DNA of 41,872 nt from a virus. Location: the IMG/VR virus record IMGVR_UViG_3300017598_000874, one strand, 5' to 3'. The translations under genes were made by a program, and so were the position numbers. Shown here piece by piece: positions 1-37,990 of this stretch. The first letter of the stretch is position 1; each line of letters begins with the position of its first letter. The notes beneath the pieces were generated by a model. That model saw only the letters and a program-made list of their open reading frames with translations, made no database searches and was not told the origin of the DNA.

Positions 1-121
1 CAGGTTTTTTACGGGGATATTTGCCTGGGCTATATCCCCGCCCTTAAAAAAGGGGGGGAATACATTGGAAGCGAACTCCAGAAACACATCATTGATAACA
101 ATATCACGACCGCTTTAATTA
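1..121. repeat. terminal overlap, copy 1 (identical to 41752-41872)
   Basis: Read directly: nt 1-121 equal nt 41752-41872 (121/121). An ORF runs through the join in frame, so the unit genome is 41751 bp. Confidence 0.95.
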
Positions 122-924
122 ACTCATACCAGTATTTGGACGAAAAATTCACACGAGGCAAAGGCGATTTTGAATATGTTGATGAACACCTAGGGTGGAA
201 CGATCAACACAAAGGCCACCTTCAATCTGTTACCCTTGAAATTGACATTCCTGAAAATGATTCCGGCAGGGCCATTGGCGGAAAATATCTAAGAGTCACC
301 ACTTTCATTTCCTACTTTGCCCCCTATGGAGGGAGTGACGGACTAATTAAATGGGCATTTAATCAGGCAGATACCTATGATGGCTACAGGAAGCGCCTTG
401 ACAGGCTATCTGAGGACGGAACGGCTATGCATGCATCCATCGAAGCCTATTTAAACAGAACACGCTCTGCGGGCGAGCTGGAGGCTCTGCCGGACGGATG
501 GCTTAATTTTGTCAATAAGTACGAAATTGACGTTATCGAGACGGAAAAGCGGTTCTACGACAACACGCTGGGCGTGACCGGCCAGCCCGACCTGCTTTGT
601 TTTCTCCGAAAGCGTGGTAGTGAGGATGAATTTAAATTAACCGTAGTGGATTGGAAATCCAAAAAGAAGCCGTCTATGAAAGAACAGCTACAGCTATCCA
701 TCTACTCGAAAAATAAAAGCTTTGAAGACCAACCGGTTGAGCAGGCCATAGTTGTTTGTTTCGGTGCAGAAAATGCACAGGGCTTTACTACGGCAACCTA
801 TAAGCGGGATAAAATTGAAGCCACCTATCAGGCAATGATATTGCTTCGGAAGGTCATGGAGGGGTGCGGTGTGTGGGTTCACGAAAGTAAATACTGGGGA
901 ATCCCGCGAAAGGAGATCAAATGA
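1..924 (+). CDS. HIRAN-domain + PD-(D/E)XK (RecB/Cas4-like) nuclease fusion, C-terminal part (gene starts at 41623 across the overlap)
   Basis: The frame of ORF 136-924 stays open back to nt 1. It is in frame with ATG 41623 on the circular map (264 nt apart). Nuclease motifs: TAMHASIEAYL, GQPDLLCF, VVDWKSKKK (D...DxK), QLQLSIY (QxxxY). Confidence 0.7.
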   Translation, partial: QVFYGDICLGYIPALKKGGEYIGSELQKHIIDNNITTALINSYQYLDEKFTRGKGDFEYVDEHLGWNDQHKGHLQSVTLEIDIPENDSGRAIGGKYLRVTTFISYFAPYGGSDGLIKWAFNQADTYDGYRKRLDRLSEDGTAMHASIEAYLNRTRSAGELEALPDGWLNFVNKYEIDVIETEKRFYDNTLGVTGQPDLLCFLRKRGSEDEFKLTVVDWKSKKKPSMKEQLQLSIYSKNKSFEDQPVEQAIVVCFGAENAQGFTTATYKRDKIEATYQAMILLRKVMEGCGVWVHESKYWGIPRKEIK

Positions 925-1112
925 AAACAAAACGCTGGCGGGTTCCCTGTATGGTTCAACTTCTGGTTGGGTTGTTTAAGAAAGACACCAATCTGTGCCT
1001 TAAATGTAAATACCTTTCAGAGGATGGTATCTGCTACGAACTCTCAAACCGCGTGTGCTGTGCTTGTCGCCCAGATCACCGGAACAAATGCAAGGACTTC
1101 AAAAAGAAGTAA
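921..1112 (+). CDS. small Cys-rich protein (putative Zn-binding)
   Basis: ATGA overlap with the upstream stop. SD aaaggag. About 10 Cys in 63 aa. The N-terminus MKTKRWRVPCMVQLLVG resembles the family-C leader and carries CTGGTTGG at 963-970. Confidence 0.5.
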   Translation: MKTKRWRVPCMVQLLVGLFKKDTNLCLKCKYLSEDGICYELSNRVCCACRPDHRNKCKDFKKK

Positions 1113-1194
1113 ACCCAACGTTGAGATAACTTGCGAGTGCTTTTCTCGTCAAGTTAATTGACGTGTTATGCTAAAAACTAAAGGAGAAAACAAG

Positions 1195-1521
1195 ATGAAT
1201 GTAATAATTAATCCAGGCACAGAAGCAGTTGAACAAGCAACAATTGAAAACGCAACAATAAATATGAAACAATTAATTGAAGATTCTGGGCAAACTGGCG
1301 TTACTTTTGAACGAATAAAAAAACAAGATGCTGAAGGTAGATTTGCTTTCAGATTAAAAAGTGAGAAGCACAATTTTACAATCGGTGTTGATATGCCTGG
1401 TTGTGATTTAGAAAAAGTTCAAGCAAGTAAACCATTTTATTCGCCAAGATTGTATATTGACGGTTCAAGTTGGCTTTGGGGATATGCACTTGGATTTATA
1501 GATTTTGATAGAGACAAATAA
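1195..1521 (+). CDS. hypothetical protein in an AT-rich island
   Basis: ATG 1195 is preceded by aaaggag (1180-1186). Visibly AT-richer than the flanks. No recognisable motif. Confidence 0.6.
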   Translation: MNVIINPGTEAVEQATIENATINMKQLIEDSGQTGVTFERIKKQDAEGRFAFRLKSEKHNFTIGVDMPGCDLEKVQASKPFYSPRLYIDGSSWLWGYALGFIDFDRDK

Positions 1522-1570
1522 GCATAACGTTTGAAATGAGTTTCCGAACACATAAACATGGAGAAGAAAA

Positions 1571-1756
1571 ATGGGCGTTATTGAGGTAAATTCAATTTCC
1601 TTGTTCGATTCAGCTCTTTGCTGGTGGCAAAGACGAAGACCTTTAATCTGGACTCAGGAGCAACATCTTGAACATCCAACGATAAACTGTGTTGATTCAG
1701 CAGAGCACAGGCTTGCCGAAAATGTCGCACGAATCGTCAAGGAATCGACTGAATGA
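1571..1756 (+). CDS. hypothetical protein
   Basis: SD ggagaag upstream of the ATG. The stop overlaps the next start (ATGA). Confidence 0.45.
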   Translation: MGVIEVNSISLFDSALCWWQRRRPLIWTQEQHLEHPTINCVDSAEHRLAENVARIVKESTE

Positions 1757-2049
1757 GACTGAAGAAGGGGAATACTATGGATGATGTAAGATGTACAAAA
1801 TGTGGATGCCAAATCAAACCGACTTATGAGTGTGCGTGTCGCGCCCCTTCTGATAGTTCTCGATTGACTGGTTCTGTTTCTCAACGGTTAATCGAAGCTG
1901 AAGACATCCTCTCGGATTTATCGACAGGGTTTTGGGTTTCAACGCTAGACGATGCTGATGTGCCAGTGAATGTTAAGATGGGACAGCGTGTTTTGAATTA
2001 CTGGAAGAAACAGAACGTCACGCATGAGCCTTGCGGAAAAAGGCTTTAA
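1753..2049 (+). CDS. hypothetical protein with N-terminal CxxC..CxC
   Basis: ATGA coupling to the upstream ORF. An alternative start at 1777 (MDDVRCTKCGC) has SD gaagggg. Carries the box TTGACTGGTTCT at 1864-1875. Confidence 0.5.
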   Translation: MRLKKGNTMDDVRCTKCGCQIKPTYECACRAPSDSSRLTGSVSQRLIEAEDILSDLSTGFWVSTLDDADVPVNVKMGQRVLNYWKKQNVTHEPCGKRL

Positions 2050-2104
2050 ATTAATCCGGCGCGTTGTCCGCATAGGTTCTATGCGCTGGTTAGGAGAAAA
2101 GGCT

Positions 2105-2338
2105 ATGGCGAATTCAAGATTATATATTTACGACGAAGACACGAACACTGCTGTTATGATTGCAAAAACAATGGGTTCCGGTTGGCGTAATCGCTCAGAT
2201 CAGGTTTCAGAAAAACTCAATGAGTTTTTTGATGGGCTTGAAGAAAACCAAGGATACGGGATGCCAGATTCAACAGGGCTTAAAATTGCCACAGAATATG
2301 AGGTCCCAAATGATGCTCGGTGTATTTATGACTCCTAA
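2105..2338 (+). CDS. hypothetical protein
   Basis: Start moved to ATG 2105 (MANSRLYIYDED), which follows AGGAG at 2092-2096. That SD is fused to the CTGGTTAG box at 2086-2093. Confidence 0.5.
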   Translation: MANSRLYIYDEDTNTAVMIAKTMGSGWRNRSDQVSEKLNEFFDGLEENQGYGMPDSTGLKIATEYEVPNDARCIYDS

Positions 2339-2348
2339 CGACTAACAT

Positions 2349-2403
2349 GACTTTCGGTGCGGTCAACCTCGACTACCGCACCGGACGTTTTCACCGTAAA
2401 GTC
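2349..2403 (+). other. nested stem-loop in the 85-nt spacer
   Basis: Outer stem GACTTT (2349-2354) pairs with AAAGTC (2398-2403). Inner perfect 8-bp stem GGTGCGGT (2356-2363) pairs with ACCGCACC (2375-2382). Followed by GTTTTCACCGTA..CTGGTTGG, which is shared with family C. Confidence 0.6.
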
Positions 2404-2423
2404 GATGGACTGGTTGGATTATT

Positions 2424-2627
2424 ATGGAAGAAATCAAAATAGAATTAGAAGTTCTCACCGAAAGGCGGAATGAAAGGCAATGCGAGATTGCAGAGTTCTT
2501 TAACTGTCGCTTCCCGACTGATGTTGAATTTTGCAAAATTGGCAAATTGTGTGATGCGATTTTCACGCTTGAGGAGCGCATTGACGTTTGCCAAACGTTG
2601 CTGGACACAATCAAATCCAACAGGTGA
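2424..2627 (+). CDS. hypothetical protein
   Basis: ORF follows a structured 85-nt spacer. Weak SD. The C-terminus runs into family-D repeat copy A. Confidence 0.45.
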   Translation: MEEIKIELEVLTERRNERQCEIAEFFNCRFPTDVEFCKIGKLCDAIFTLEERIDVCQTLLDTIKSNR

Positions 2628-2678
2628 TATAAATATAAAAAGTCCATCTACGCAGATATTAAAGAGGAAAAGATGACT
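2613..2678 (+). repeat. family-D leader, copy A (upstream of VRR-NUC)
   Basis: AAATCCAACAGGTGATATAAATATAAAAAGTCCATCTACGCAGATATTAAAGAGGAAAAGATGACT. Confidence 0.9.
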
Positions 2679-3113
2679 GCACCAAGAATAAACCTGTCAG
2701 ATTCGGTGATTGAGCGAATGACCACCGATCAAAGAAAATCCCTTAAAGTTAAAACCAGAAGTGAAATTAACGCAAAACTCGAAGAAAAAGCTGAAAAGGT
2801 AATCCAAAACGAAGTAGAGAGCTGGCTTCGGCACAACGGGTTTTGGCCCCGATCGCCCGCTTTCTTGGACGGGAAGGTGCCACCTCGGGGGTGGTACACG
2901 CACACAAACAAAGCCAAGGGAAACCCCCTCACGCTCGATCTGACGGCATGGACGCTTGAGGGGGGCAATGTACTGGAATTAGAGCTGAAGACGCTTCACG
3001 GGACGCTCAGGCCCCATCAGCGGGTTATTCTGGACACAACGCCGTGTGCAAAGCTGGCGAGGAGCACTGAAGAGGCTATTGAGATTATTAGAGAGTGGTT
3101 TAACATCCCTTGA
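2673..3113 (+). CDS. VRR-NUC-like nuclease
   Basis: Pattern EKVIQNEVESWLRHNG ... NPLTLDLTAW ... LELELKTLHGTLRPHQ fits the VRR-NUC layout (D..ExK then Q). SD agaggaaaag lies within the family-D leader. Confidence 0.65.
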   Translation: MTAPRINLSDSVIERMTTDQRKSLKVKTRSEINAKLEEKAEKVIQNEVESWLRHNGFWPRSPAFLDGKVPPRGWYTHTNKAKGNPLTLDLTAWTLEGGNVLELELKTLHGTLRPHQRVILDTTPCAKLARSTEEAIEIIREWFNIP

Positions 3114-3137
3114 CAATGAATGAAGAGAGTGTATCAT
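3110..3137 (+). promoter_or_regulatory. sigma70-like promoter
   Basis: TTGACA, 16 nt, TATCAT, with a TG at the extended -10 position. Overlaps the VRR-NUC stop. Confidence 0.55.
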
Positions 3138-3166
3138 GGATAGCTTATTAAGCGGAAGGCAATGAA

Positions 3167-3382
3167 ATGGACGATAAGGTACTGAACGAAGAACTGAAAT
3201 CAAGTGCAAGGCGGCATTCCAAGCGGCTCATCGACAAGATGAAAGAAATCGGTGACGTTCCTGCCGTGGTGCAGGATTCAATCCGCACAGAAATGGAATA
3301 CGCCACAAAAGACGGCTACCGCATCACCGCCAGACATTTCCGAAATGGAGAATTCTGTGACGAAGACACCGGCAACCGCTAA
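3167..3382 (+). CDS. hypothetical protein
   Basis: First ORF after the sigma70-like promoter at 3110-3137. SD ggaagg. Confidence 0.45.
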   Translation: MDDKVLNEELKSSARRHSKRLIDKMKEIGDVPAVVQDSIRTEMEYATKDGYRITARHFRNGEFCDEDTGNR

Positions 3383-3962
3383 AAAATCCTTCATCCTGTA
3401 CGTCGATCTGCACGATGTTGTCTCAGAAATGTCTGAGGATGAAGCTGGGCATCTCTTCAAAGCCATCCTCCATTACCAGAAATTCGGGGAGCGTCCGGAC
3501 GTTCCTAAATCTGTTAAATTTACGTTCCTTCACCTCGTTTCGCAGTTCAAAAGGGATAATGCTAAGTGGGATGATATTCGCGTAAAGCGTTCTGATGCAG
3601 GTAAAAAGGGAGCCAAGCAAAAGCTAGCACTTGCTGGCAAAAGAAAGCAAAAGTCAGCAAAACAAGCTGTTAATGTAAGTGTTAATGTAAATGTAAGTGA
3701 TATATTAAATACAATGGGGAAGGCTAGAAGGGAAAGTTTTCAGCGGTGGATGCGGTACAAGTCAGAGAAGGGCCAGACGTACAAGCCAACCGGCTTCAAA
3801 GCCCTTGTCTCAAAATGGGAGAAGGTTTCGGATGAACGGCTTAACGCCGCTGTAACGCACTCCTCTTCCAATAATTATTCAGGGCTTTTTGAGCAAAACA
3901 CGCCTGTTCCCACCCCCAACGCCATAGAGACCGGACTAACCGACGAGGACTACAAGCTATGA
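3345..3962 (+). CDS. replisome-organiser/DnaD-like protein (tentative)
   Basis: Sits immediately upstream of the DnaC-like loader, with an ATGA overlap to it. The N-terminus KKSFILYVDLHDVVSEMSEDEAGHLFKAILHY resembles phage replication-organiser N-domains. Contains a basic KKGAKQKLALAGKRKQK stretch. The start is uncertain (ORF-track start 3252 is a GTG). Confidence 0.45.
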   Translation: MENSVTKTPATAKKSFILYVDLHDVVSEMSEDEAGHLFKAILHYQKFGERPDVPKSVKFTFLHLVSQFKRDNAKWDDIRVKRSDAGKKGAKQKLALAGKRKQKSAKQAVNVSVNVNVSDILNTMGKARRESFQRWMRYKSEKGQTYKPTGFKALVSKWEKVSDERLNAAVTHSSSNNYSGLFEQNTPVPTPNAIETGLTDEDYKL

Positions 3963-4609
3963 AAATCCCCACATCCATGCTGAAGCCCCCGGACACGAGG
4001 CCGGAACCAGAGGCCAATCTCATTGACCCCCTGATCGAAAAGGTGGGAATGAGCTTTGATAAACTGAGGCTGAAACGAACCCCGCTTATTGAGGCCGTCA
4101 TGCCGGTTTTTGGGCGCATCTGGTTTGACGTGAAGGATACCGATTTGTTTCAGCATGAATTTTCACAGGAGCGCGTTGTCGATACGGGGTATGCAATAGC
4201 AAAGCAGGGCGTACTGCTTGCCGGAGACGTGGGGGTTGGGAAAACAACCATTCTTCGCAGTATGGCATCCAGAATATGCGGTGAATATCTGAGTGTTCCT
4301 GAGCTGGCAATTACCTTCTCCCGTTTTGGCGCGGAGGGTTTTTGGGAACTGCTTGAAAGGGCGAGAAGCTGGGATTTATTTTTAGACGACCTCGGAGCAG
4401 AGGAAACGGTAAAAAGCTACACCAACCCGCTTCCGATTCCAGACTTGCTTTATCGCCGGTATGATTTATGGCAGAGCAGGGGTATCCGAACCCACATCGC
4501 CAGCAACCTGTCTGCCAAAGGAATTGAGGATCGTTACGGGTTGCGGGTGAGAGACAGGTTTCGGGAAATGATGCATGTCATTCCGTGTACAGGGAAGAGT
4601 TTGAGGTGA
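3959..4609 (+). CDS. DnaC/IstB-like AAA+ helicase loader
   Basis: Walker A LLAGDVGVGKTT. Walker B DLFLDDLGAEE. Size and position fit a loader. Confidence 0.85.
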   Translation: MKIPTSMLKPPDTRPEPEANLIDPLIEKVGMSFDKLRLKRTPLIEAVMPVFGRIWFDVKDTDLFQHEFSQERVVDTGYAIAKQGVLLAGDVGVGKTTILRSMASRICGEYLSVPELAITFSRFGAEGFWELLERARSWDLFLDDLGAEETVKSYTNPLPIPDLLYRRYDLWQSRGIRTHIASNLSAKGIEDRYGLRVRDRFREMMHVIPCTGKSLR

Positions 4610-4651
4610 TGGAGAAATCAGTTTTGCGAAACAGAAATAACGGAGGACATC

Positions 4652-4924
4652 ATGTGTACTGAAAATGAAAATATTGCGGACGGCGTTGAGCATAAATCTG
4701 AATTGACTGGTTCGGTTTCTGCGTGTGACATCATCAAAACGTGGCTCAAAGAAAACGGCTACGACGGTTTGTGCGACAACGATGAATGTGGTTGCGGATT
4801 GGACGATCTTGCACCGTGCGATTACATTGGGCTCTATCACTGCGTTGCCGCGCACAAACAAGACAATGGATTATTTTATGAGGGGAAGAAATCGAGCGAC
4901 GGTGTGAGCCTCGCAGGGAAATAG
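4652..4924 (+). CDS. hypothetical acidic Cys-rich protein
   Basis: SD cggagga. CDNDECGCGLDDLAPCD. Carries the box TTGACTGGTTCG at 4703-4714. Confidence 0.5.
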   Translation: MCTENENIADGVEHKSELTGSVSACDIIKTWLKENGYDGLCDNDECGCGLDDLAPCDYIGLYHCVAAHKQDNGLFYEGKKSSDGVSLAGK

Positions 4925-4934
4925 GAGAGTGATT

Positions 4935-5234
4935 ATGCGTATGAAAACAAATTTCAAAATCTGGTGCGGGGTATTGCGTAGGTTCCACGTATCGGTTCGA
5001 TTCTTCGAGGTTGCAGCAATCCTTGGGTTTCTCGATAAAGACACATGGAGAACGTTGTTTCCTCCATTCAAAGGTTGGGACATTGGATGCTACTACTGCG
5101 ACCTGCATGACCGCTCGGTTGAGCGTGGCGTGTGTGGCTATGGAGAAAGGCGTGGTTGGAAAAAGTGTGGTCGCGTTATAGGAGAAACGAACGATAAGAT
5201 GAGGCTGAAGAGCCGAAGGAGAAACGATGACTGA
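4935..5234 (+). CDS. hypothetical protein
   Basis: ATG 4935 lies 7 nt after AGGAG (4923-4927). The 3' end is read through family-A leader copy 1. Confidence 0.4.
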   Translation: MRMKTNFKIWCGVLRRFHVSVRFFEVAAILGFLDKDTWRTLFPPFKGWDIGCYYCDLHDRSVERGVCGYGERRGWKKCGRVIGETNDKMRLKSRRRNDD

Positions 5235-5279
5235 TACAAAAAAGCGTGACGGCCTTGATAGCCTCGATGAACTGGCTGG
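5199..5279 (+). repeat. family-A leader, copy 1
   Basis: ATGAGGCTGAAGAGCCGAAGGAGAAACGATGACTGATACAAAAAAGCGTGACGGCCTTGATAGCCTCGATGAACTGGCTGG. About 93% identical to 38425-38505. Confidence 0.9.
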
Positions 5280-5445
5280 CCTGCTGGAAGAAGCTTATCG
5301 CGCTGGCTACTCACAAGGCTATGAAGGGGGTTCTGTTGACGCTGGATTGCCCCCAACGCATAACGACCATGTTTGCCCGTGGGATGGCGACTACGCGAAG
5401 GCTAGGGCGACCACCTTTCTGAAGCAGGCCAACGTACTTGCGTGA
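5227..5445 (+). CDS. hypothetical protein, family-A N-terminus (MTDTKKRDGLDSLDEL)
   Basis: SD aaggag within the conserved leader. The first 16 codons are shared with 7553 and 38453. Confidence 0.55.
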   Translation: MTDTKKRDGLDSLDELAGLLEEAYRAGYSQGYEGGSVDAGLPPTHNDHVCPWDGDYAKARATTFLKQANVLA

Positions 5446-5463
5446 CCGTGAGCGCAAACCCTC

Positions 5464-5568
5464 CTAACGACAACCATGAGGCTGAACGGATTAACCAAAG
5501 GAGTAAAGCATGAGTGAAGAAGTTAAGAAAAACGCAGGGGGCAGTGATAGCCTCAATGAACTGGTTGG
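5464..5568 (+). repeat. family-A leader, diverged copy
   Basis: CTAACGACAACCATGAGGCTGAA ... GATAGCCTCAATGAACTGGTTGG. Confidence 0.7.
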
Positions 5569-5764
5569 ATGGCAAAAGGTTGGGTCTTTCAAGACGGTTG
5601 GAGAATTGAGACATCTGCTTCATCAATACGACAAAGAGTGCTCGATTGGGTTCATCAACCAACCAAAACAGGATCTATTCCTGCGAATTGAAGATGGGCG
5701 AGGAATGTTAGGATTCCAAAGGCCATCCAACGACCCGAATCAGACTGAAGGAGCAACCAAATGA
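5510..5764 (+). CDS. hypothetical protein, diverged family-A N-terminus (..GGSDSLNELVG)
   Basis: SD aaaggag. Box GATAGCCTCAATGAACTGGTTGG at 5546-5568. Confidence 0.55.
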   Translation: MSEEVKKNAGGSDSLNELVGWQKVGSFKTVGELRHLLHQYDKECSIGFINQPKQDLFLRIEDGRGMLGFQRPSNDPNQTEGATK

Positions 5765-6012
5765 CAATGATCGAACCAAAAACGCCCGATGCGAGTGATA
5801 GTCTGAATTTGCTGGTTAGCCAAATGAATCAGGAAATCGCTAATGCGATGGCAGTTGACATTCCAAAAATCATTATGCGAAACGGAACGATTGAATATCA
5901 ACAATCTCAAACCGTGCGAGAGGCCATTCACATGCGTGACTCTGCTTTAAACACGATGGCTAACAGAAGTATAAATGGGAAAAGTCCATCTACGCATACA
6001 TCACAGGAATAA
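5761..6012 (+). CDS. hypothetical protein, diverged family-A N-terminus (..DASDSLNLLVS)
   Basis: ATGA overlap with the upstream stop. Box at 5797-5819. The 3' end runs through family-D partial copy D. Confidence 0.5.
   Translation: MTMIEPKTPDASDSLNLLVSQMNQEIANAMAVDIPKIIMRNGTIEYQQSQTVREAIHMRDSALNTMANRSINGKSPSTHTSQE
5960..5996 (+). repeat. family-D, partial copy D
   Basis: CTAACAGAAGTATAAATGGGAAAAGTCCATCTACGCA. Confidence 0.7.
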
Positions 6013-6096
6013 AAAAACCTGAACTTTATGCTTGCACTTCCAAGTGCATATGCAATGCTAAAGGAACGATCAGGTTGAGCCTGAAGGAGCAAGCAG

Positions 6097-6336
6097 ATGA
6101 CTACAGATAAAACACAAAACGCGGGCGTTGCGACTGATAGCGCTCTAACCTCTGGCTCGGCAATGATTATGTCGTTTGTTACCGGACAAGATGCCTCTCT
6201 TTTTGGTGGGTGTGGGCGGTGCGACGCAACCGGATTGATTCACATCGAAGAAGGGAACTACTCGACTGATTGCCCTGACTGTCAAAGGAAAATAAATGAG
6301 AAAAGGAGAATAAATGAGAACTGGAAAAAATCATAA
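6097..6336 (+). CDS. hypothetical Zn-ribbon protein
   Basis: SD gaaggag. CGRC...CPDC. A weak box copy lies at 6136-6159. Confidence 0.5.
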   Translation: MTTDKTQNAGVATDSALTSGSAMIMSFVTGQDASLFGGCGRCDATGLIHIEEGNYSTDCPDCQRKINEKRRINENWKKS

Positions 6337-6469
6337 TGTTTATCTCAACCCGGTAGATTGGGATGAGCTAAAAGAAATCGGAGTGAAACATCGCCTCGAA
6401 CTGGAGAAACCCTCGAATTCTACAGGGGTGAGAGCGCTTCTTCGGTTCTGGAGAAAACATAAAAAATGA
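6314..6469 (+). CDS. small ORF (51 aa), possible ribbon-helix-helix-like
   Basis: Below the ORF-track cutoff and read by hand: MRTGKNHNVYLNPVDWDELKEIG...RALLRFWRKHKK. SD aaaaggaga. Overlaps the previous ORF by 23 nt. Confidence 0.3.
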   Translation: MRTGKNHNVYLNPVDWDELKEIGVKHRLELEKPSNSTGVRALLRFWRKHKK

Positions 6470-6529
6470 AGTCATCAGACATAAAGTTAGAAAATATCGA
6501 AGGCGACGGAGTAAAACAGGAGAAATAAG

Positions 6530-7171
6530 ATGAAATGGAAAAACGACACAACAGGCATGGCTCTCGACGGAGGTGTTTACGATGCCGTCTGTTGTAGCAT
6601 TATTGACATCGGCACCCAGCACGGTGAATGGCAGGGGAAAGAGAAAATTAAACGTCAGTGCATCATCGGGTGGGAGCTGCTTGACGAAACCTATGAAAAA
6701 GACGGAGAAACAAAGCGGTGTCATGCCAGCGAGTTTTACACGCAAAGCCTTGATCCCAGAGCAACACTTCGCAAACACCTGAAGGGCTGGCGCGGACGAG
6801 ACTTCACGCCGGAAGAACTGGCTGGGTTTGAACCTAAAAACATTCTCGGAAAGCCCTGCTCGCTTATGCTGGAACTAACTGACAAAGGGAAGAACCGCGT
6901 TGAAGCCATTAGTAAATATAAAGGTACAGATCAGCCCTCCCCGGAGGGTGACATTCGTTATTTTATGATGACGGATGATGACGGGAATATCACCTTTAAC
7001 GGCTATTTTCCCGAATGGATGAGCGACGGCATTAAAAAACTGATTGAAAAGTCAGATGAGTACCGAATTATCACAGGCGATTTAGTGCCTGTGACGGAGC
7101 CTCCCGAGTCCAGCGATTATGTCGGCGATGCTGTTCCTCCAGAAAATGAGGATGATAAAATCCCGTTCTAA
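6530..7171 (+). CDS. phage ssDNA-binding-like protein with SSB-type C-terminal tip
   Basis: The acidic C-terminal tail ends in PENEDDKIPF, which matches the bacterial SSB tip DDDIPF. SD caggaga. The body resembles phage DUF669-type SSB-like proteins (from memory, unverified). Confidence 0.6.
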   Translation: MKWKNDTTGMALDGGVYDAVCCSIIDIGTQHGEWQGKEKIKRQCIIGWELLDETYEKDGETKRCHASEFYTQSLDPRATLRKHLKGWRGRDFTPEELAGFEPKNILGKPCSLMLELTDKGKNRVEAISKYKGTDQPSPEGDIRYFMMTDDDGNITFNGYFPEWMSDGIKKLIEKSDEYRIITGDLVPVTEPPESSDYVGDAVPPENEDDKIPF

Positions 7172-7196
7172 CGAAAAAGATCAGGGGCTGGATGCT

Positions 7197-7262
7197 CCAA
7201 AGGAGACTACAGATGAGCGATAAAAACGCGGCGGGGCAAGACGTACCTTCCATTGACTGGTT
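7197..7262 (+). repeat. family-B leader, copy 1 (66 bp perfect)
   Basis: CCAAAGGAGACTACAGATGAGCGATAAAAACGCGGCGGGGCAAGACGTACCTTCCATTGACTGGTT, identical to 8174-8239. Confidence 0.95.
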
Positions 7263-7407
7263 AGCTGTATCGTTGAATGACTTGAAAGCACGAAGAGGGT
7301 GCGGATCGGCATACGACCAACTGATAAACGAGCGGAAAATATCCGACTTATTGGAAATGGCATCCAACGACAACCATGAGGCTGAAGAGCCGAAGGAGAA
7401 ACAATGA
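7213..7407 (+). CDS. hypothetical protein, family-B N-terminus (MSDKNAAGQDVPSIDWL)
   Basis: ATG 7213 follows aaaggag. The first 17 codons are identical to the ORF at 8190. Confidence 0.5.
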   Translation: MSDKNAAGQDVPSIDWLAVSLNDLKARRGCGSAYDQLINERKISDLLEMASNDNHEAEEPKEKQ

Positions 7408-7408
7408 C
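7364..7408 (+). repeat. family-A leader, left half (copy 2a)
   Basis: CCAACGACAACCATGAGGCTGAAGAGCCGAAGGAGAAACAATGAC. Confidence 0.9.
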
Positions 7409-7556
7409 AGAGTCCGCAGGATACGACGTTGATTGCACCCATGTCTCCAACTGCTGTGGGGCAGACCTTCGGATTGAAGGAAGGACTACGCAATACTATG
7501 TGTGCGAAAATTGCGGATACCCTTGTGATATTCGAGAGCCGAAGGAGAAACGATGA
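7404..7556 (+). CDS. small Zn-ribbon ORF (50 aa) between duplicated leader halves
   Basis: Read by hand: MTESAGYDVDCTHVSNCCGADLRIEGRTTQYYVCENCGYPCDIREPKEKR. Uses the family-A SD. Confidence 0.45.
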   Translation: MTESAGYDVDCTHVSNCCGADLRIEGRTTQYYVCENCGYPCDIREPKEKR

Positions 7557-7605
7557 CTGACACAAAAAAGCGTGACGGCCTTGATAGCCTCGATTCGCTG
7601 GTTCG
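7535..7605 (+). repeat. family-A leader, right part (copy 2b)
   Basis: AGAGCCGAAGGAGAAACGATGACTGACACAAAAAAGCGTGACGGCCTTGATAGCCTCGATTCGCTGGTTCG. Confidence 0.9.
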
Positions 7606-7819
7606 CCCAACAATCTTACTGGACATTCAAATGTACGTCGAGTGTCCGCACTGCGGAGAAGAACACGATCTTGCGCGATCAGAGTTCAACGCAGAGGGTG
7701 AGCACCTTTCTGCCCTATTCACGGGGGACAGTTACGACTGGCGAAAAAACTTGGACGGATCAGAGTTTGAATGTCCAGAGTGCAACAAAACATTTGAGCT
7801 AGGCGAGATCGAATGGTGA
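7553..7819 (+). CDS. hypothetical double Zn-ribbon protein, family-A N-terminus
   Basis: MTDTKKRDGLDSLDSL then CPHCG...CPECN. Conserved SD. Confidence 0.6.
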   Translation: MTDTKKRDGLDSLDSLVRPTILLDIQMYVECPHCGEEHDLARSEFNAEGEHLSALFTGDSYDWRKNLDGSEFECPECNKTFELGEIEW

Positions 7820-7871
7820 GGGCGAACGCCACCGATGAGGCTTTGCCAAAACAACAAAAGGAGAATGACCA

Positions 7872-8141
7872 ATGAAGAAAATTAAAACATTACTGTGCGG
7901 GTTAGCAATAGCCTCGATTGGCTTGTTGTCTGGCTGTGATGAGCATCAAAAAACAGCCCCCGCTTATCCCCACGACAGAAACATGAAAACAGTAAACAAC
8001 GATGTCAGCCGAAACGGATCTCGCTATCAGGGAGGGTTCCAAAAAACAGAGTGGGACGGGCACCTTTGGGTTATGCGCGTTCACGGAAACATGGTTGATG
8101 CGCTTGCGCATCACCCTGACTGTGCGTGCAACAACAGATGA
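7872..8141 (+). CDS. putative lipoprotein
   Basis: Signal peptide plus lipobox LLSGC (MKKIKTLLCGLAIASIGLLSGCDEH). SD aaaaggaga. Confidence 0.65.
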   Translation: MKKIKTLLCGLAIASIGLLSGCDEHQKTAPAYPHDRNMKTVNNDVSRNGSRYQGGFQKTEWDGHLWVMRVHGNMVDALAHHPDCACNNR

Positions 8142-8173
8142 CAGACAACGAAAACAATGAGGGGCGGATTGCC

Positions 8174-8239
8174 CCAAAGGAGACTACAGATGAGCGATAA
8201 AAACGCGGCGGGGCAAGACGTACCTTCCATTGACTGGTT
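8174..8239 (+). repeat. family-B leader, copy 2 (66 bp perfect)
   Basis: Identical to 7197-7262. Preceded by the hairpin GGGGCggattGCCCC. Confidence 0.95.
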
Positions 8240-8402
8240 GGAAGTAGATATTCTTTCTGTTGATTTTGAAACAAACGAAATGGTTCTGATTCTACCAAAA
8301 GAAGTGGTGGCGCGTGGATTTCACGCCGGAAAAGTTAAGGTTGATCTTTCGGGCGTACAACGTACTTCCAACGACAAGGTGAACCGTGAGCGTAGCGAAT
8401 AG
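8190..8402 (+). CDS. hypothetical protein, family-B N-terminus
   Basis: ATG 8190 lies inside the 66-bp perfect repeat 8174-8239. The 3' end runs into a CCAACGAC box. Confidence 0.5.
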   Translation: MSDKNAAGQDVPSIDWLEVDILSVDFETNEMVLILPKEVVARGFHAGKVKVDLSGVQRTSNDKVNRERSE

Positions 8403-8452
8403 GCTCCACTTTCTGGTTAGGCGAACACTAAACACAAACAAAGGAGACGACA

Positions 8453-8671
8453 ATGAAAGACCAAGTACTGAAAATTGTAAAAAACGCACTCGCAGGAACC
8501 GAAGACAACCTTTACCGCGCAAACATGCAGTTTGGGCGAATGACTCCAGAACAATTAAAAGGCGAATACGGGCAGTCCGGCGAAACGTGCGGAAAGATTA
8601 TGCAGGGCTACAGAGACGAAAACGAAAAACTGAAACAGTGCGTGGCATGGGTCGAGGACTGCCCCGCCTAA
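8453..8671 (+). CDS. hypothetical protein
   Basis: SD aaaggaga. A CTGGTTAG box lies 33 nt upstream of the ATG. Confidence 0.55.
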   Translation: MKDQVLKIVKNALAGTEDNLYRANMQFGRMTPEQLKGEYGQSGETCGKIMQGYRDENEKLKQCVAWVEDCPA

Positions 8672-8763
8672 CGACAAGATAACCAGCGGGAAAACCGCGA
8701 AGGGGTCAAGATGAAGGATAAAATTTCGGGCGGTTTTCACCGTATGGTTCATTTTCTGGTTAG
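8668..8763 (+). repeat. family-C leader, copy 1 (96 bp perfect)
   Basis: CTAACGACAAGATAACCAGCGGG...CATTTTCTGGTTAG, identical to 38158-38253. Confidence 0.95.
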
Positions 8764-8887
8764 CTTCCGCGCTGGAAGATTGAACGACATCAACATCTTT
8801 GAGGTGATATTGCTTTCGGCAATCGTTGGATCATTGCTTGGGGCTATCATTTACATGGGATTCCTTGAGTTAATCAAGGGAAGCTAA
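8711..8887 (+). CDS. small membrane protein (58 aa), family-C N-terminus (MKDKISGGFHRMVHFLVS)
   Basis: Read by hand. Begins inside the 96-bp perfect repeat. C-terminal TM segment VILLSAIVGSLLGAIIYMGFL. Confidence 0.5.
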   Translation: MKDKISGGFHRMVHFLVSFRAGRLNDINIFEVILLSAIVGSLLGAIIYMGFLELIKGS

Positions 8888-8923
8888 CGACAAAGTGAGT
8901 CTCCGAGGCTCGAAAGGACACAA

Positions 8924-9250
8924 ATGAAAAAAGCATCTGAAATTTTTGAAGACCAAAGAGGTTCGGCGTTTGCTGAATGCGTTGCGGAGCCGAAGGTAGA
9001 TTCTATGGCTGGTTCGATTCCAGTATTTACGGAAAAAAACTTAAGGGAGTGCTCTTTTTTGGCAGAGGGAACGGTGTTTGTTTCCGAGCATAACGACCCG
9101 CTCAAATACTGGGTAGAAATCGCGTTCTGTCGAAGCGTTGGGGTTTTCTTCCAAAAGAAAGACGCTGTCGAGTACGCAGAATTTATCAAATCGAACAGAG
9201 GTATAGATATAAAAAGTACATCTACGCAGATATTAAAGAGGAAAAGATGA
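8924..9250 (+). CDS. hypothetical protein
   Basis: SD aaagga. Contains GAGCCGAAGG and CTGGTTCG (9009-9016) repeat fragments. The 3' end is read through family-D copy B. Confidence 0.5.
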   Translation: MKKASEIFEDQRGSAFAECVAEPKVDSMAGSIPVFTEKNLRECSFLAEGTVFVSEHNDPLKYWVEIAFCRSVGVFFQKKDAVEYAEFIKSNRGIDIKSTSTQILKRKR

Positions 9251-9252
9251 CT
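9188..9252 (+). repeat. family-D leader, copy B (upstream of the SleB-like hydrolase)
   Basis: AAATCGAACAGAGGTATAGATATAAAAAGTACATCTACGCAGATATTAAAGAGGAAAAGATGACT. Confidence 0.9.
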
Positions 9253-9624
9253 ACTGGACTATTACTTGCATTAACTATCTGGCTAGAAGCGCGGGACGAA
9301 CCCTTTGAGGGAAAACTTGCCGTGGCTCAGGTTGTCATGGAGCGGGTGGCGGACAGCCGCTGGCCTGATACTGTCAGAGAAGTAATCCTGCAACCGAAGC
9401 AGTTCACCTGCTGGAACGGGCGGACACCATCGACAGCGCAGGTTCCGGCACAGCCTGATGAGGCATGGACGGCCTGCTGCGCCGCCGCAAGAGCGGTGCT
9501 TATGGACTCTGTGTTTCCGGACGGCTTCAATCATTATTATAATCCGAAGCGTTGCTCCCCGCTGTGGGCAAAAAGGGCCAAACGCACCATAAAAATCAAC
9601 AACCACTTATTTTTAGAATTATGA
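9247..9624 (+). CDS. SleB/CwlJ-family cell-wall hydrolase (endolysin candidate)
   Basis: TIWLEARDEPFEGKLAVAQVVMERV...QPKQFTCW...HYYNP...INNHLF matches the Hydrolase_2 (SleB) domain pattern EARGE..G..AVA.V..NR...QP.QF...YyNP...gnH.F. Confidence 0.9.
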   Translation: MTTGLLLALTIWLEARDEPFEGKLAVAQVVMERVADSRWPDTVREVILQPKQFTCWNGRTPSTAQVPAQPDEAWTACCAAARAVLMDSVFPDGFNHYYNPKRCSPLWAKRAKRTIKINNHLFLEL

Positions 9625-9672
9625 CCGCCCCTTTTTTAAACACACTTAATCACAGACGGAGATTGAGACAAA

Positions 9673-9792
9673 ATGAAAAACAAGACTACGAAAAGTCGGA
9701 GGGTTAGCTTGATTGATGTTATTGGGCTATCAATTTTGATTGCCGGAATAATCGCCGTTGTGGAGATTCTGCGGATTATTTACACAAGCTAA
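9673..9792 (+). CDS. small single-TM protein (39 aa), holin-like candidate
   Basis: Read by hand: MKNKTTKSRRVSLIDVIGLSILIAGIIAVVEILRIIYTS. Lies directly downstream of the hydrolase. Confidence 0.4.
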   Translation: MKNKTTKSRRVSLIDVIGLSILIAGIIAVVEILRIIYTS

Positions 9793-9822
9793 CGTTAATC
9801 ATCAGTTTCGAGGAGAAAGACT

Positions 9823-10065
9823 ATGACCGAAGAAAACAAACGTTGTACTCGTAAAATGAATGATCTGGTTAGATGTCCTTTTTGCAAGACGGAAGGTGAA
9901 TATCTGACAACGGTTATTGATGACAACAAAGCGTGGGTAAGTTGCTTTGAATGCGGTTGCAAGGGGCCATTTGCTATTGACTCAAGTTATGGGGATAGCG
10001 CGTCAAAGTTTGCACGAATACTATGGAACAACTCAGCATCTAACAGAAGTATAAATGGAAAATGA
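9823..10065 (+). CDS. Lar-family restriction-alleviation-like Zn-ribbon protein
   Basis: RCPFCKTEGEY...VSCFECGCKGPF...ARILWNN fits the Lar pattern CPFCG...C..Cg....A...WN. SD gaggaga. Confidence 0.6.
   Translation: MTEENKRCTRKMNDLVRCPFCKTEGEYLTTVIDDNKAWVSCFECGCKGPFAIDSSYGDSASKFARILWNNSASNRSINGK
10040..10064 (+). repeat. family-D, partial copy E
   Basis: CTAACAGAAGTATAAATGGAAAATG. The ATG of ORF 10062 lies inside it. Confidence 0.6.
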
Positions 10066-10301
10066 CGGCGCGATTAGCAGGGCGGATTGATTCCAGATTC
10101 TGTCCCGAGTGCCGAGAGTGGTATGAGGTGGAGGTTGGTCTGGCTACCAACGCTCAGGTTTACTGCACAACCGAATGCCGGATTGATGCTCGAAACCGGC
10201 GGCGGAGAAGGCGGGCCAGAGCAGCCAGCGCAATTCCGGTTGCCGAACAGGTTCGCCGGTGGGATTTACGTAAAGACCTAAAAAGAAAGGATGCGATATG
10301 A
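10062..10301 (+). CDS. Zn-ribbon + Arg-rich protein
   Basis: FCPEC...YCTTEC then RNRRRRRRAR. The CxxC..YC(S/T)xxC ribbon is shared with the ORF at 39474. Confidence 0.5.
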   Translation: MTARLAGRIDSRFCPECREWYEVEVGLATNAQVYCTTECRIDARNRRRRRRARAASAIPVAEQVRRWDLRKDLKRKDAI

Positions 10302-10438
10302 AAAGCGACAAAATGTCTTTTACCCAATATTTAAAGTTTTGGCTCAAGATCCACTTTGAGGACATTCGCCAGCCAGCAGATCAGGATCGTTATGCAGATG
10401 CACAGGGTTTTCATTCAATCTCCCGCGTGGCCGGTTAG
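10298..10438 (+). CDS. small ORF (46 aa), last on the plus arm
   Basis: ATGA coupling to the upstream ORF. Overlaps the 3' end of the convergent minus-strand ORF by 24 nt. Confidence 0.25.
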   Translation: MKSDKMSFTQYLKFWLKIHFEDIRQPADQDRYADAQGFHSISRVAG

Positions 10439-10714
10439 TTTGAGCACCATGAAAACAAGTCCGAGTATCGAGCCGAGCAGAGTTACCGCGCCGGGCCAGT
10501 TGAGCGCGTGGCGGGGTTTGGTGGCGGGGCAAGAGGCCATGCGAGCGCGGCATTCACGACTGCTGACAAATTCAGCATGGAACTGAATCCGGTTGGCGCG
10601 GATGAGGTAGCGGATGGCATCGCTCATGGTACCGGGGTCGCCGCGGTTTCCATTGCTGAGATCATTCTCCAGGCGCTCCCCCTCTAAAATCAGCTCCTTC
10701 TGTTCCGGTGTCAT
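10415..10714 (-). CDS. tail-anchored membrane protein (C-terminal TM), lysis or spanin-like candidate
   Basis: C-terminal TM WPGAVTLLGSILGLVFMVL. Last gene of the minus arm, next to a small lipoprotein gene. Confidence 0.45.
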   Translation of the reverse strand: MTPEQKELILEGERLENDLSNGNRGDPGTMSDAIRYLIRANRIQFHAEFVSSRECRARMASCPATKPRHALNWPGAVTLLGSILGLVFMVLKLTGHAGD

Positions 10715-10753
10715 AGTCTTCGTCCTTTTGCTCCCGGCCTTTGAACTTTATTG

Positions 10754-10963
10754 TTATTGCACCGGAATGGTGGTTTCGGGGGCAACGGCTCCGCCGCCTT
10801 CCATGTCTCTCACCGCTTCCGAATTGTTGTCGCTGCCGTCTGTATTCTGCGCCGCCGAGCGGCTGGTCAGGGCCTGACTGTTCGCGTTCACCGAATCAAT
10901 CCGTCCGGCCACGATGCACCCGCTCAGGAGTGCCGCTATTGTTAATAGTACTAGTATTTTCAT
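10754..10963 (-). CDS. small lipoprotein (o-spanin-like or exclusion candidate)
   Basis: MKILVLLTIAALLSGC lipobox. 69 aa. Flanked by a 15-bp direct repeat. Confidence 0.55.
   Translation of the reverse strand: MKILVLLTIAALLSGCIVAGRIDSVNANSQALTSRSAAQNTDGSDNNSEAVRDMEGGGAVAPETTIPVQ
10755..10769. repeat. 15-bp direct repeat, copy 1
   Basis: TATTGCACCGGAATG, identical to 10975-10989. Confidence 0.9.
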
Positions 10964-10974
10964 CGCTTATCCTC

Positions 10975-10989
10975 TATTGCACCGGAATG
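10975..10989. repeat. 15-bp direct repeat, copy 2
   Basis: TATTGCACCGGAATG. The two copies bracket the small lipoprotein gene. Confidence 0.9.
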
Positions 10990-10993
10990 TAGT

Positions 10994-35507: not shown

Positions 35508-35536
35508 TTGACCTCACACGGCCAAGAGGTTAGAGT
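35508..35536 (+). promoter_or_regulatory. early promoter P1 (TTGACC-17-TAGAGT)
   Basis: Lies within a 42-bp block (35495-35536) that is repeated at 36946-36987. Confidence 0.6.
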
Positions 35537-36958: not shown

Positions 36959-36987
36959 TTGACCTTATACGGCTAAGGGATTAGAGT
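36959..36987 (+). promoter_or_regulatory. early promoter P2 (TTGACC-17-TAGAGT), duplicate of P1
   Basis: TTGGAGATAATAGTTGACCTTATACGGCTAAGGGATTAGAGT, about 36/42 identical to the P1 block. Confidence 0.6.
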
Positions 36988-37794: not shown

Positions 37795-37932
37795 ATGAAC
37801 AATAAAACACTGATTAAGCTTGCCGGAAACGGCGCAGGCGTGATCCCTGCTCATGAGTACCAGCAGGCAAAGAACGACTGGCCTGCGAGTGCGATTGCCG
37901 ACCTGCTCCGGCTAATCGAAAAAACAGAATGA
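37795..37932 (+). CDS. small ORF (45 aa)
   Basis: Read by hand: MNNKTLIKLAGNGAGVIPAHEYQQAKNDW... SD aggaaaag. Confidence 0.35.
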   Translation: MNNKTLIKLAGNGAGVIPAHEYQQAKNDWPASAIADLLRLIEKTE

Positions 37933-37990
37933 GCGATAAAATGAATTCGATGGTTAGTCTAAAGTTGAACAATCAACGAAGGAGAGAAAC

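Follow-up and report, generated by a model that had tools for sequence, protein, structure and literature searches.

An orientation-locked element at early gene starts

The window analysed here is the whole 41,872-nucleotide stretch of viral DNA held as IMG/VR record IMGVR_UViG_3300017598_000874, and the subject of this work is a repeated element, recognised by the box CTGGTT(A/G/C)G, that lies at the starts of its early genes and resembles the attC recombination sites of integrons. The ends of the window, 1–121 and 41752–41872, are 100% identical, and the window is therefore a complete circular or terminally redundant genome with a unit of 41,751 bp. The early arm occupies the plus strand from ~35.4 kb through the genome junction to ~11 kb, while a podovirus-like late arm lies on the minus strand. 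A gene for a PD-(D/E)XK exonuclease of 350 amino acids spans the junction (41623–924), and the phage also codes for a Holliday-junction-resolvase-like protein. A megablast search with window positions 1–12000 against deposited phages gave no match, the DnaC-like protein had no relatives in IMG/VR, an exact 19-mer search of IMG/VR returned a single chance match (contig L001), and a homologue search with the cargo protein of gene 7553–7819 returned the same protein only. Contig L004 (Joint Genome Institute (JGI) sample 3300021155, 12,319 nt) is a second assembly of the same phage. It ends exactly at both copies of a 99-nt repeat (8668–8766 and 38158–38256), indicating that attC-like repeats fragment short-read assemblies of such phages.

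The 14 plus-strand positions of CTGGTT(A/G/C)G given in the original prediction, which had been made by eye, were all exact. A single copy is present on the minus strand, at 15878–15885, and the total of 15 on both strands compares with 3.36 ± 1.74 in dinucleotide shuffles, 0 of 100 of which reached 15. The late arm contained zero plus-strand copies, as had been suspected. An unbiased k-mer count placed CTGGTT as the top 6-mer on the sense strand of the early arm, with 20 occurrences against 2.7 expected, compared with 6 antisense occurrences in the early arm and 5 on the sense strand of the late genes; CTGGTTAG was the top 8-mer of the early-arm sense strand (7 against 0.2 expected). Enrichment by strand and by region over a shuffled null, a check named beforehand, was thus upheld by the k-mer count and the shuffles. 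A second box lies at the left end of the unit, where YYAACGAC had been proposed to mark the stop of the upstream gene. This left box is real: CTAACGAC occurs in 6 copies (0.3 expected), with 0 antisense and 0 in the late arm. The coincidence with the upstream stop holds for six sites, in which the TAA of the left box is the true stop codon of the preceding gene.

The upstream half that many copies had been said to share is also real and gives a 23-nt consensus, R-T-A-N3-T-N2-A-N4-CTGGTT-V-G. A weight matrix of this motif produced 22 matches of at least 10 bits on the plus strand and 0 on the minus strand. The box is the 3′ end of an imperfect hairpin element of 63–145 nt that is present at 24 places, all on the plus strand, from 38153 through the genome junction to 9877. 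These were detected at E < 0.01 with R1, a covariance model based on an alignment (A2) of 15 phage modules; no late-arm site fell below E = 1. Strand-locking and confinement to the early arm therefore held for every covariance-model site, and the 16–18 or so copies first counted represent a real but commoner element. The sites beyond the earlier list are 1519–1612, 4888–5004, 6058–6164, 7359–7465, 7818–7934, 38781–38897 and 39008–39077.

Copies of the element are similar over ~90 nt 5′ of the box, a stretch that holds the first ~15 codons, the ATG, the Shine–Dalgarno (SD) sequence and a small hairpin, up to the AACGA box. The similarity ends directly 3′ of the box, and paralogous early genes are alike over residues 1–17/22 only. 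At 20 of the 24 sites the variable centre of the element takes in the beginning of the downstream gene, from the SD through the start codon to about codon 15, in agreement with the earlier observation that an upstream pairing partner encloses the SD and start codon; the other four, 2330–2422 among them, enclose no start codon. The box begins mostly 42–55 nt downstream of the ATG, and 85–91 nt downstream in two cases. An alternative position upstream of the start was confirmed for the boxes at 2410 and 8413, which are non-coding, and applies to 2086 only with a start at 2105, as called in the JGI contig. The claim that the box is read in at least two frames was correct as to frame independence and low as to the count, which is three: the box is read as L-V in genes 921, 5510, 7553, 8711 and 9823 among others, as W-L in genes 7213 and 8190, and as (T/A)-G-S in genes 1777, 4652 and 8924. 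With all three frames in use and non-coding copies besides, conservation is at the nucleic-acid level.

The element folds into a long imperfect hairpin. Its 3′ arm is made up of the box with the upstream half, and its 5′ arm immediately precedes the SD. From the base inwards the hairpin comprises an AAC...GTT pairing, an unpaired spacer of 5–6 nt with the CTG of the box as its 3′ side, a covarying helix (helix 2) that has one bulged base and, at a distance of six bases, a conserved T, and the variable centre. The fold of 8670–8770 was calculated at −34 kcal/mol. Compared with shuffles, duplex energies were only modestly better at several sites (z from +1.1 to −3.9), and the structure is therefore claimed on the basis of covariation and not of energy. 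The helices of A2 pair the left-box AAC with the GTT of the box, and (N)ATGAGGC with G-CCTC-N-AT. Paired cells amounted to 91.7% compared with 74.3 ± 2.3 in shuffles (0 of 500 as high), the covariation score was 0.471 against 0.188, and sliding the partner by 1–3 columns left at most 46.5% paired. Helix 2 was 93.6% paired in the window modules, with compensatory changes at six of its eight pairs. Pairing of AACCA with TGGTT, as originally envisaged, was found in few copies; the conserved pairs are instead AAC/GTT and the ATGAGG-type arm with the nnTCnAT upstream half. The small local hairpin upstream of the SD (GGGGC..GCCCC) is an alternative to the TTGCCCC/GGGGCAA pairing of the long-range stem, and a related phage contig, L009, has a compensatory CTGCCCC/GGGGCAG in that stem.

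Other resemblances were considered and set aside. Pairing of the V position of the box with the base before AAC was supported in the window (U-A 5, C-G 2, G-C 2, U-G 2, other 4) but unsupported in relatives. A tRNA-like origin, suggested by a D-arm/T-arm resemblance, was rejected since ARAGORN found no tRNA and the spacing is unfit. The likeness of 8681–8700 to a type I-E CRISPR repeat concerns one family only and was judged to be chance. Rfam, which has no attC family, returned no match at the gathering threshold.

Matching sites in bacterial integrons and related phages

An exact-pattern scan with GATAGCCTCNATNNNCTGGTT over one genome per prokaryotic species gave mostly single chance matches, together with five loci from Pontiella or Pontiellaceae. 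In those bacteria R1 finds same-orientation arrays of ~93-nt elements lying 200–700 nt apart: ten sites at E < 0.05 in L093, a 5.7-kb scaffold of Pontiellaceae B1224 on which every plus-strand open reading frame (ORF) ends at an element; several sites in L153 and L159 (Pontiella sulfatireligans F21); and two each in L082 and L108, from Pontiella metagenome-assembled genomes (MAGs). Ten R1 sites at E < 0.05 were also present in L162, a Verrucomicrobiota MAG, and further R1 arrays in MAGs of Kiritimatiellia (L191), Lentisphaeria and Terriglobia. Integron integrases matching TIGR02249 are encoded at L153:422–1543 and L162:5139–6473 (448 and 383 bits; cut-off 265). Both flank the array and are transcribed divergently from the cassette ORFs, and these arrays are therefore chromosomal integrons, with the elements as their attC sites. 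Homogeneous attC sites, 93 nt long in Pontiella and 65–81 nt in other taxa, are found in L093, L153, L159, L082, L108, L162, L191, L193 and L197, and the chromosomal integrons that bear them belong to a Terriglobia MAG and to Kiritimatiellota, Verrucomicrobiota and Lentisphaeria. In a full-text literature search, no paper combined attC and integrons with a name beginning in Kiritimatiell-. As a separate observation, an IS91-type transposase (Y2_Tnp and Zn_Tnp_IS91) with an adjacent tyrosine recombinase lies inside the integron cassette array of L159, at 3155–5192.

The bacterial sites were aligned (A6, 21 Pontiella sites), and a second covariance model, R2, was trained solely on them. The A6 consensus has the same invariants as the phage motif, namely AACG, TGA, GTA, TC-A and CTGGTT. 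The fold is also the same: AAC pairs with GTT in the R box, CTG makes up the 3′ side of the spacer, and the L box of 10 bp contains a single bulge. Of the 13 pairs, 8 showed compensatory changes. When applied to the window, R2 found 13 full-length plus-strand sites at E < 0.05, the best scoring 59.5, 56.1, 49.4 and 49.2 bits. The site at 9784–9877 is colinear with the 93-nt bacterial consensus and reads GAGGAGAAAGACTATGACC where the consensus is GTGGAATAAACTTTGACC, so that few substitutions would be enough to make a translation start. By these alignments the phage sites are shown to be homologous, in sequence and in structure, to the 93-nt attC sites of Pontiella/Pontiellaceae and to those of other integrons of the Planctomycetes–Verrucomicrobia–Chlamydiae (PVC) group.

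Related phages carry the element as well. The nearest contig, L002, has an exonuclease 63% identical to that of the window, only two proteins in common with it, and the elements. R1 elements are also found in L069/L204, L009, L016 and L205, always gene-oriented, and the exonucleases of these contigs are, where measured, 42–48% identical to the window's. The start-containing arrangement is kept in relatives whose exonucleases are only 43–63% identical. Other relatives, among them L078 and L003, are without elements. Covariation in relatives, called for earlier, was confirmed in 11 modules from four other contigs: helix 2 was 96.5% paired and had compensatory changes at seven of eight pairs. L069, L205 and L002 contain almost the same sequence as the site at 2330–2422, flanked on either side by genes that are unrelated, which is how attC sites behave when they belong to a single integron lineage.

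The published description of attC sites provides a detailed standard for comparison. Their R box consists of terminal inverted repeats with conserved 5′-AAC-3′ and 5′-GTT-3′; the L box is a second inverted-repeat pair, kept in structure and not in sequence; and between the two lies an unpaired spacer of about 5–6 nt per arm (PMC5027507). On the L″ arm of the bottom strand the proximal extrahelical base is usually G and the distal one T, with a 6-bp stem between them. Total length is about 57–141 nt with a variable terminal structure, and it is the bottom strand that folds and is cleaved between the A and C of AAC (PMC5027507). In the 15 phage modules the three R-box pairs are A-U in 12, A-U in 13 and C-G in 12, and AAC/GTT is invariant in 10–11 of 11 relative modules and 20–21 of 21 Pontiella sites. 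Compensatory pairs support the L box in the window, the relatives and the bacterial set. The spacer is unpaired in the consensus structures; NN-CTG forms its 3′ side, and the 5′ side reads GACAA(N) in phage sites and GTTA in those of Pontiella. There is one bulge in the 3′ arm (CTC-N-AT), occupied by G in the commonest family, with an invariant T six bases to its 5′ side. In the 23-nt motif, position 3 corresponds to the distal extrahelical T, positions 4–9 to the 6-bp stem, position 10 to the proximal extrahelical base, NN-CTG to the unpaired central spacer, and GTTVG to the R″ box. From the alignment, the bulged base and the T are predicted to be truly extruded. The centres measure 12–94 nt; four sites of 92–94 nt are like the 93-nt Pontiella sites, and two, of 143 and 145 nt, are slightly beyond the published range. 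The GTTVG end of the box corresponds to an R″ box, the upstream half to an L″ arm with extrahelical bases, and the 5′ arm is made up of YYAAC-GAC (R′ and spacer) followed by an ATGAGG-type L′ arm. By homology, CTGGTT marks the non-cleaved R″ end, and the crossover would lie in the left box (CTAA/CGAC, the slash marking the crossover).

The orientation of the sites relative to the genes is unusual. In both integrase-linked arrays the model matches in the orientation opposite to the cassette ORFs, so that in the phage it is the coding strand that represents the attC bottom strand. There are 24 G.T pairs against 7 A.C mismatches in phage sites and 8 against 0 in bacterial sites, indicating that the modelled strand is the one that folds better. 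Canonical cassettes have a top-strand ORF followed by its attC, whereas in the phage the ORFs are on the bottom strand and the attC lies over the ORF 5′ end at 20 of 24 sites. With no integrase detected among the ORFs scanned, the array is classified as a cluster of attC sites lacking an integron integrase (CALIN), and not as a complete integron.

Individual sites and other repeats in the window

All sites listed here are on the plus strand, and scores are in bits. Four lie before the genome junction. The site at 38153–38258 (box CTGGTTAG at 38246; R1 82.0; R2 22.2, E = 1.7e-4) holds the SD and ATG of gene 38201–38416 and is 99% identical to the site at 8663–8768. It is followed by 38408–38510, with a degenerate box CTGATTAG at 38498 and the start of gene 38453–38710 (R1 91.0, R2 20.5), by 38781–38897, with a degenerate box ATTGTTGG and the start of gene 38832–39047 (R1 68.9), and by a short site at 39008–39077, which has the box CTTGTTGA and no start codon and lies upstream of gene 39099 (R1 21.4, E = 0.0016).

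Beyond the junction, the site at 873–975 (box CTGGTTGG at 963; R1 39.7) covers the start of gene 921–1112 and has a poorly conserved 5′ arm. Three of the next sites are of canonical length. The first, 1519–1612 (94 nt; box CTTGTTCG at 1600; R2 49.2, E = 9e-13; R1 31.0), holds the start of gene 1571–1756; the second, 2007–2098 (92 nt; R2 56.1, E = 6e-15; R1 30.7), has CTGGTTAG at 2086, a box that shares bases with AGGAG, the SD belonging to the start at 2105; and the third, the 93-nt site at 2330–2422 (box CTGGTTGG at 2410; R2 59.5, E = 6e-16; R1 38.0), is non-coding. Between the first two lies a site with a long centre, 1736–1880 (box CTGGTTCT at 1868; R1 27.2), at the start of gene 1777–2049. 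A weak candidate for a 25th site is seen at 1110–1174 (R1 15.6, E = 0.048; R2 15.5, E = 0.018).

A further group begins at 4601–4719 (box CTGGTTCG at 4707; start of gene 4652–4924; R1 50.1). It continues with 4888–5004, where a variant box TCGGTTCG is found at 4992 and the start is that of gene 4935–5234 (R1 62.8; duplex −28.3 kcal/mol, z = −3.1); 5183–5284, with a degenerate box CTGGCTGG at 5272 and the start of gene 5227–5445 (R1 83.3); and 5459–5573, with CTGGTTGG at 5561 and the start of gene 5510–5764 (R1 80.2, R2 14.9). The next site, 5722–5824 (box CTGGTTAG at 5812; start of gene 5761–6012; R1 64.3, R2 27.5), has a compensatory variant, ATCAGACT/AGTCTGAAT, as its L box, and 6058–6164 carries CTGGCTCG at 6152 and the start of gene 6097–6336 (R1 38.9, R2 21.5). 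At 7163–7269 (box CTGGTTAG at 7257; start of gene 7213–7407; R1 71.8) the TAA in the left box terminates gene 6530–7171. The decaying site at 7359–7465, whose 5′ arm is intact and whose 3′ arm has degenerated, contains the start of gene 7404–7556 (R1 23.3, E = 5e-4) and is followed by 7509–7610 (box CTGGTTCG at 7598; start of gene 7553–7819; R1 61.9).

Gene 7872–8141 encodes a lipoprotein precursor (MKKIKTLLCGLAIASIGLLSGC...) whose signal peptide is coded by the 3′ arm of the site at 7818–7934 (degenerate box CTTGTTGT; R1 66.2). The site at 8140–8246 (box CTGGTTGG at 8234; R1 77.3, R2 17.4; duplex z = −3.4) holds the start of gene 8190–8402. A short site of 63 nt, 8363–8425 (box CTGGTTAG at 8413; R1 30.7, R2 22.9), precedes the separate SD and ATG of gene 8453–8671, and 8663–8768 (box CTGGTTAG at 8756; start of gene 8711–8887; R1 79.0, R2 18.4) has GCCTAAC as its left box, which is the canonical RYYYAAC. 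The series closes with 8879–9021, a long-centred site (box CTGGTTCG at 9009; start of gene 8924–9250; R1 38.1), and with the 94-nt site of canonical length at 9784–9877, which has CTGGTTAG at 9865 and includes the SD and ATG of gene 9823–10065 (R2 49.4, E = 7.5e-13; R1 64.4).

Among the near-variants of the box reported earlier, those at 1868, 5272 and 38498 are real and lie within full elements, and the one at 37950 is a half-site only (R1 9.2, E = 2.1). This remnant, ATGGTTAG, is contained in a 21-codon mini-ORF (MSDKMNSMVS...) at 37929–37994, the TGA stop of which overlaps the GTG start of gene 37991. The mini-ORF looks like a decayed site that now acts as a coupled leader ORF.

Other repeats were also seen. 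A second and unrelated family of repeated initiation regions, AAACCGAAA(C/T)GGAGACAG(G/A)AAATGAAA, is present at five or six genes between 35567 and 37448; it has no attC-like site and lies downstream of a duplicated sigma-70-like promoter, TTGACC-17-TAGAGT (35508–35536 and 36959–36987). A 64-nt repeat (..TATAAATATAAAAAGTCCATCTACGCAGATATTAAAGAGGAAAAGATGA) containing a TATAAATA motif occurs at 2613–2676, 9187–9250 and 39278–39341, and also at 5970–6013, and serves both as the 3′ end of a gene and as the start region of the gene that follows, namely the resolvase-like gene 2673, the endolysin gene 9247 and gene 39338. On the minus strand, five direct repeats of ~41 nt, 354–531 nt apart, lie at 17652–19558 inside gene 14767–20877; the 2036-amino-acid product gave no Pfam match, and the repeats suggest repeated protein domains with conserved DNA. 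Finally, the product of 10062–10301 is a small protein that has a zinc ribbon and a segment rich in arginine (..RNRRRRRRARA..). It matched no family and is a candidate for binding nucleic acids.

Interpretation and comparison with known systems

The interpretation considered strongly probable is that CTGGTT(A/G/C)G and its upstream half, (R)TAnnnTCnA, are the 3′ arm of an integron attC-type site, and that the phage carries a 24-site CALIN presumably used by a host integrase. Seen in this way, the phage genome has for a third of its length the look of an array of integron cassettes in reverse. The original prediction had listed a recombination cassette boundary among its candidate roles, and that role is supported by the evidence, with attC and not the promoter–stem-loop (PeSL) elements of phage T4 as the right system. 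The position of the starts inside attC centres explains the common leaders of unrelated genes and the reading of the box in three frames. In the proposed mechanism, the plus strand, when single-stranded, would fold into the bulged hairpin and be bound by the integron integrase of the host, and strand exchange would take place between the A and C of the left-box AAC. The mobile unit would extend from one left box to the next and comprise its own attC, a translation start and one small gene, often ending on the TAA inside the next left box (a stop in six cases). Recombination of such units would delete, duplicate, reorder or exchange small accessory genes, and would explain why the elements are locked in orientation and independent of frame, why leaders are shared and why similarity ends so sharply. 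A host integrase would presumably carry it out.

Several observations sit less comfortably with an attC array. No intI, attI or Pc promoter was found, and no recombinase, tyrosine recombinases included, was detected among the ORFs scanned with Pfam/PHROG, most small early ORFs being outside that scan; any recombination must therefore use a host enzyme. No excised circle or recombination junction was observed, and exact-protein look-ups for a strain variant with another cassette order returned the same phage only. The gene order is the reverse of that in canonical cassettes, the ORFs lying downstream of the site and overlapping it. The extended RYYYAAC/GTTRRRY fits only about a third of the phage R boxes exactly (for example GCCTAAC at 8663 and GTTAGGC at 8413); the others are off at one position, and Pontiella sites deviate likewise, e.g. 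GTTCG... The outermost R-box pair is unsupported in relatives, where it is unpaired in 8 of 11 modules, and the sites at 5183–5284, 38408–38510, 7359–7465, 7818–7934 and 38781–38897 are degenerate. It could also be that conservation stems partly from repeated re-acquisition or from an RNA-level role.

An RNA-level role is the subject of a further explanation, in which the elements descend from attC and now act mainly as RNA, the stem clamping the ribosome-binding site (RBS) and start codon into a looped part of the polycistronic early mRNA; it would act as a translational coupling or insulating device, as the operator of a common repressor, or as a processing site for a double-strand-specific RNase. 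Hairpins of attC sites in mRNA are reported to affect cassette translation. The elements are sense-oriented within a transcribed operon, 20 of 24 enclose an SD and ATG, and this arrangement is retained in diverged relatives; where the left-box TAA is the upstream stop, in six sites, a terminating ribosome would melt the stem, and the small hairpin 5′ of the SD is a competitor of the long-range stem. Plus-strand RNA would account equally well for the surplus of G.U over A.C. However, the unpaired invariants (CTG, the conserved T and AACG) are identical in the bacterial attC sites, and bacterial arrays are transcribed in the sense of the cassette ORFs, so that no RNA of this strand is expected there and a reader at the DNA level is indicated. 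Four sites enclose no start, and four phage contigs have kept one of them (2330–2422); for the most part the SD and ATG sit in an open loop instead of being sequestered; duplex energies are modest against shuffles at several sites; and no RNA-binding regulator was identified, in a scan of the larger proteins that showed none like a RegA/RegB factor. A secondary role of this kind, in coupling, insulation or processing, is plausible; as the main function it is rather unlikely. Still less probable is a second alternative, in which the elements are portable homology for the phage exonuclease/annealase or for host RecA and small genes are shuffled without an integrase. Near-identical modules of 90–100 nt do lie beside unrelated genes, the phage has both the exonuclease and the Holliday-junction-resolvase-like protein, the L004 assembly breaks at the 99-nt repeat, and PeSL elements set a precedent (PMC2839356). 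Nevertheless, such shuffling needs no hairpin, covariation, invariant AAC/GTT or bulges at fixed spacing, it leaves the homology to integrase-linked bacterial attC arrays unexplained, and no PeSL-like promoter or terminator signal was seen above shuffles.

The remaining two explanations concern the box alone. Reading it as a conserved N-terminal targeting or leader peptide of early proteins draws on the several genes with MTDTKKRDGLDSLDELVG-like or MKDKISGGFHRMVHFLVS-like N termini, and is refuted by the frame analysis: three frames are used, there are non-coding copies, the same sequence lies on the non-coding strand of bacterial cassette arrays, and the pairing partners are upstream of the start codon. 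Its probability is negligible. A promoter, transcription-factor site, Chi-like sequence or nicking site on double-stranded DNA would fit the enrichment and orientation lock of the box, which also bears a loose resemblance to the E. coli Chi sequence (GCTGGTGG). Resemblance to a Chi-like or integration host factor-like site is partial, however, and neither explains the upstream half. The box lies 42–55 nt inside ORFs, and in both parts of the early arm sigma-70 promoter and terminator signals did not rise above shuffles, with no such signal at an element; a transcription-factor binding site, as once proposed, found no support. As the covarying partner arm and the attC homology cover every conserved position, this explanation is highly improbable.

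On the attC reading, a wider and more tentative proposal, which may be correct though the balance is somewhat against it, is that a podovirus-like clade, probably infecting Pontiellaceae or other PVC bacteria, has domesticated attC sites as dual-purpose modules, giving reverse cassettes that are swapped by the host integrase. The attC of each reverse cassette would also bear the RBS, start codon and N-terminal codons, and an SOS-inducible host integrase would excise, reorder and swap self-expressing genes between phages, possibly also between the phage and the chromosomal integron of its host. The likeness of the sites suggests a Pontiellaceae or other PVC-group host, and so provides a host prediction (Pontiellaceae/Kiritimatiellota) for an uncultivated phage lineage. 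If a host integrase acts on the sites, they offer a testable mechanism for the fast turnover of orphan early genes and a direct route of gene exchange between phages and chromosomal integrons; if the dual-purpose proposal is true, the array would be a site-specific engine for mosaicism of a phage early region. The reversed arrangement, in which the attC carries the translation signals, is a natural case of a recombination site within coding sequence, something that integron engineers had to design (PMC7439510).

Clusters of attC sites in phages are a recent and rare finding. They have been described in virulent phages by Qi et al. 2023, with 17 in 10,705 genomes, and five of six phage attC sites tested were recombined by IntI1 (PMC9892861). 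The window shares with integron attC sites and CALINs the R′/R″ boxes with AAC/GTT, the unpaired spacer, the structural L box, the L″ extrahelical bases and the variable centre, as well as one-orientation arrays with one small ORF per unit, near-identical sites beside unrelated ORFs, the lack of a detected integrase on the replicon, and sequence homology to integrase-linked Pontiella attC. The survey set its threshold at ≥ 2 attC per phage CALIN (PMC9892861), whereas here the array is more than a passenger: its 24 sites organise about one-third of a 41.75-kb genome, take in most small early genes and are kept in diverged relatives. In contrast to canonical cassettes, the phage genes are inverted, on the attC bottom strand, and in contrast to canonical attC the phage site holds the SD, the ATG and the first ~15 codons. 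The arrangement also differs from published phage CALINs in being conserved across a clade of uncultivated phages and in its PVC/Kiritimatiellota-type sites.

Other repeats of phage early regions are alike in part. The T4 PeSL elements are short repeated modules that bound small non-essential early genes at mosaic junctions and plausibly shuffle them (PMC2839356); they consist of a sigma-70 early promoter and a terminator stem-loop and recombine by homology, whereas the elements described here have neither signal, and their hairpin spans the gene start and belongs to a site-specific integrase system. The start-associated sequences (SAS) and extended SAS (ESAS) of Cluster K mycobacteriophages are orientation-locked repeats at the starts of many gene families, the ESAS with imperfect inverted repeats (PMC3203893). 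The SAS, however, is a 13-bp GGGATAGGAGCCC-type motif 3–8 bp upstream of the start (PMC3203893), unlike the box, which lies 42–55 nt downstream and has another sequence; the 17-bp inverted repeats of the ESAS are wholly upstream, and neither repeat enters the ORF or is related to attC. The targets of T4 RegA/RegB and the T7 RNase III sites resemble the elements in that many early mRNAs share a cis element near the initiation region, and RNase III substrates do so in their stem–internal loop–stem architecture. They differ from the phage elements, whose conserved unpaired bases are those of bacterial attC DNA and some of which enclose no start. The array is thus of a known kind, a phage CALIN, and what is new here is that its attC sites double as gene starts.

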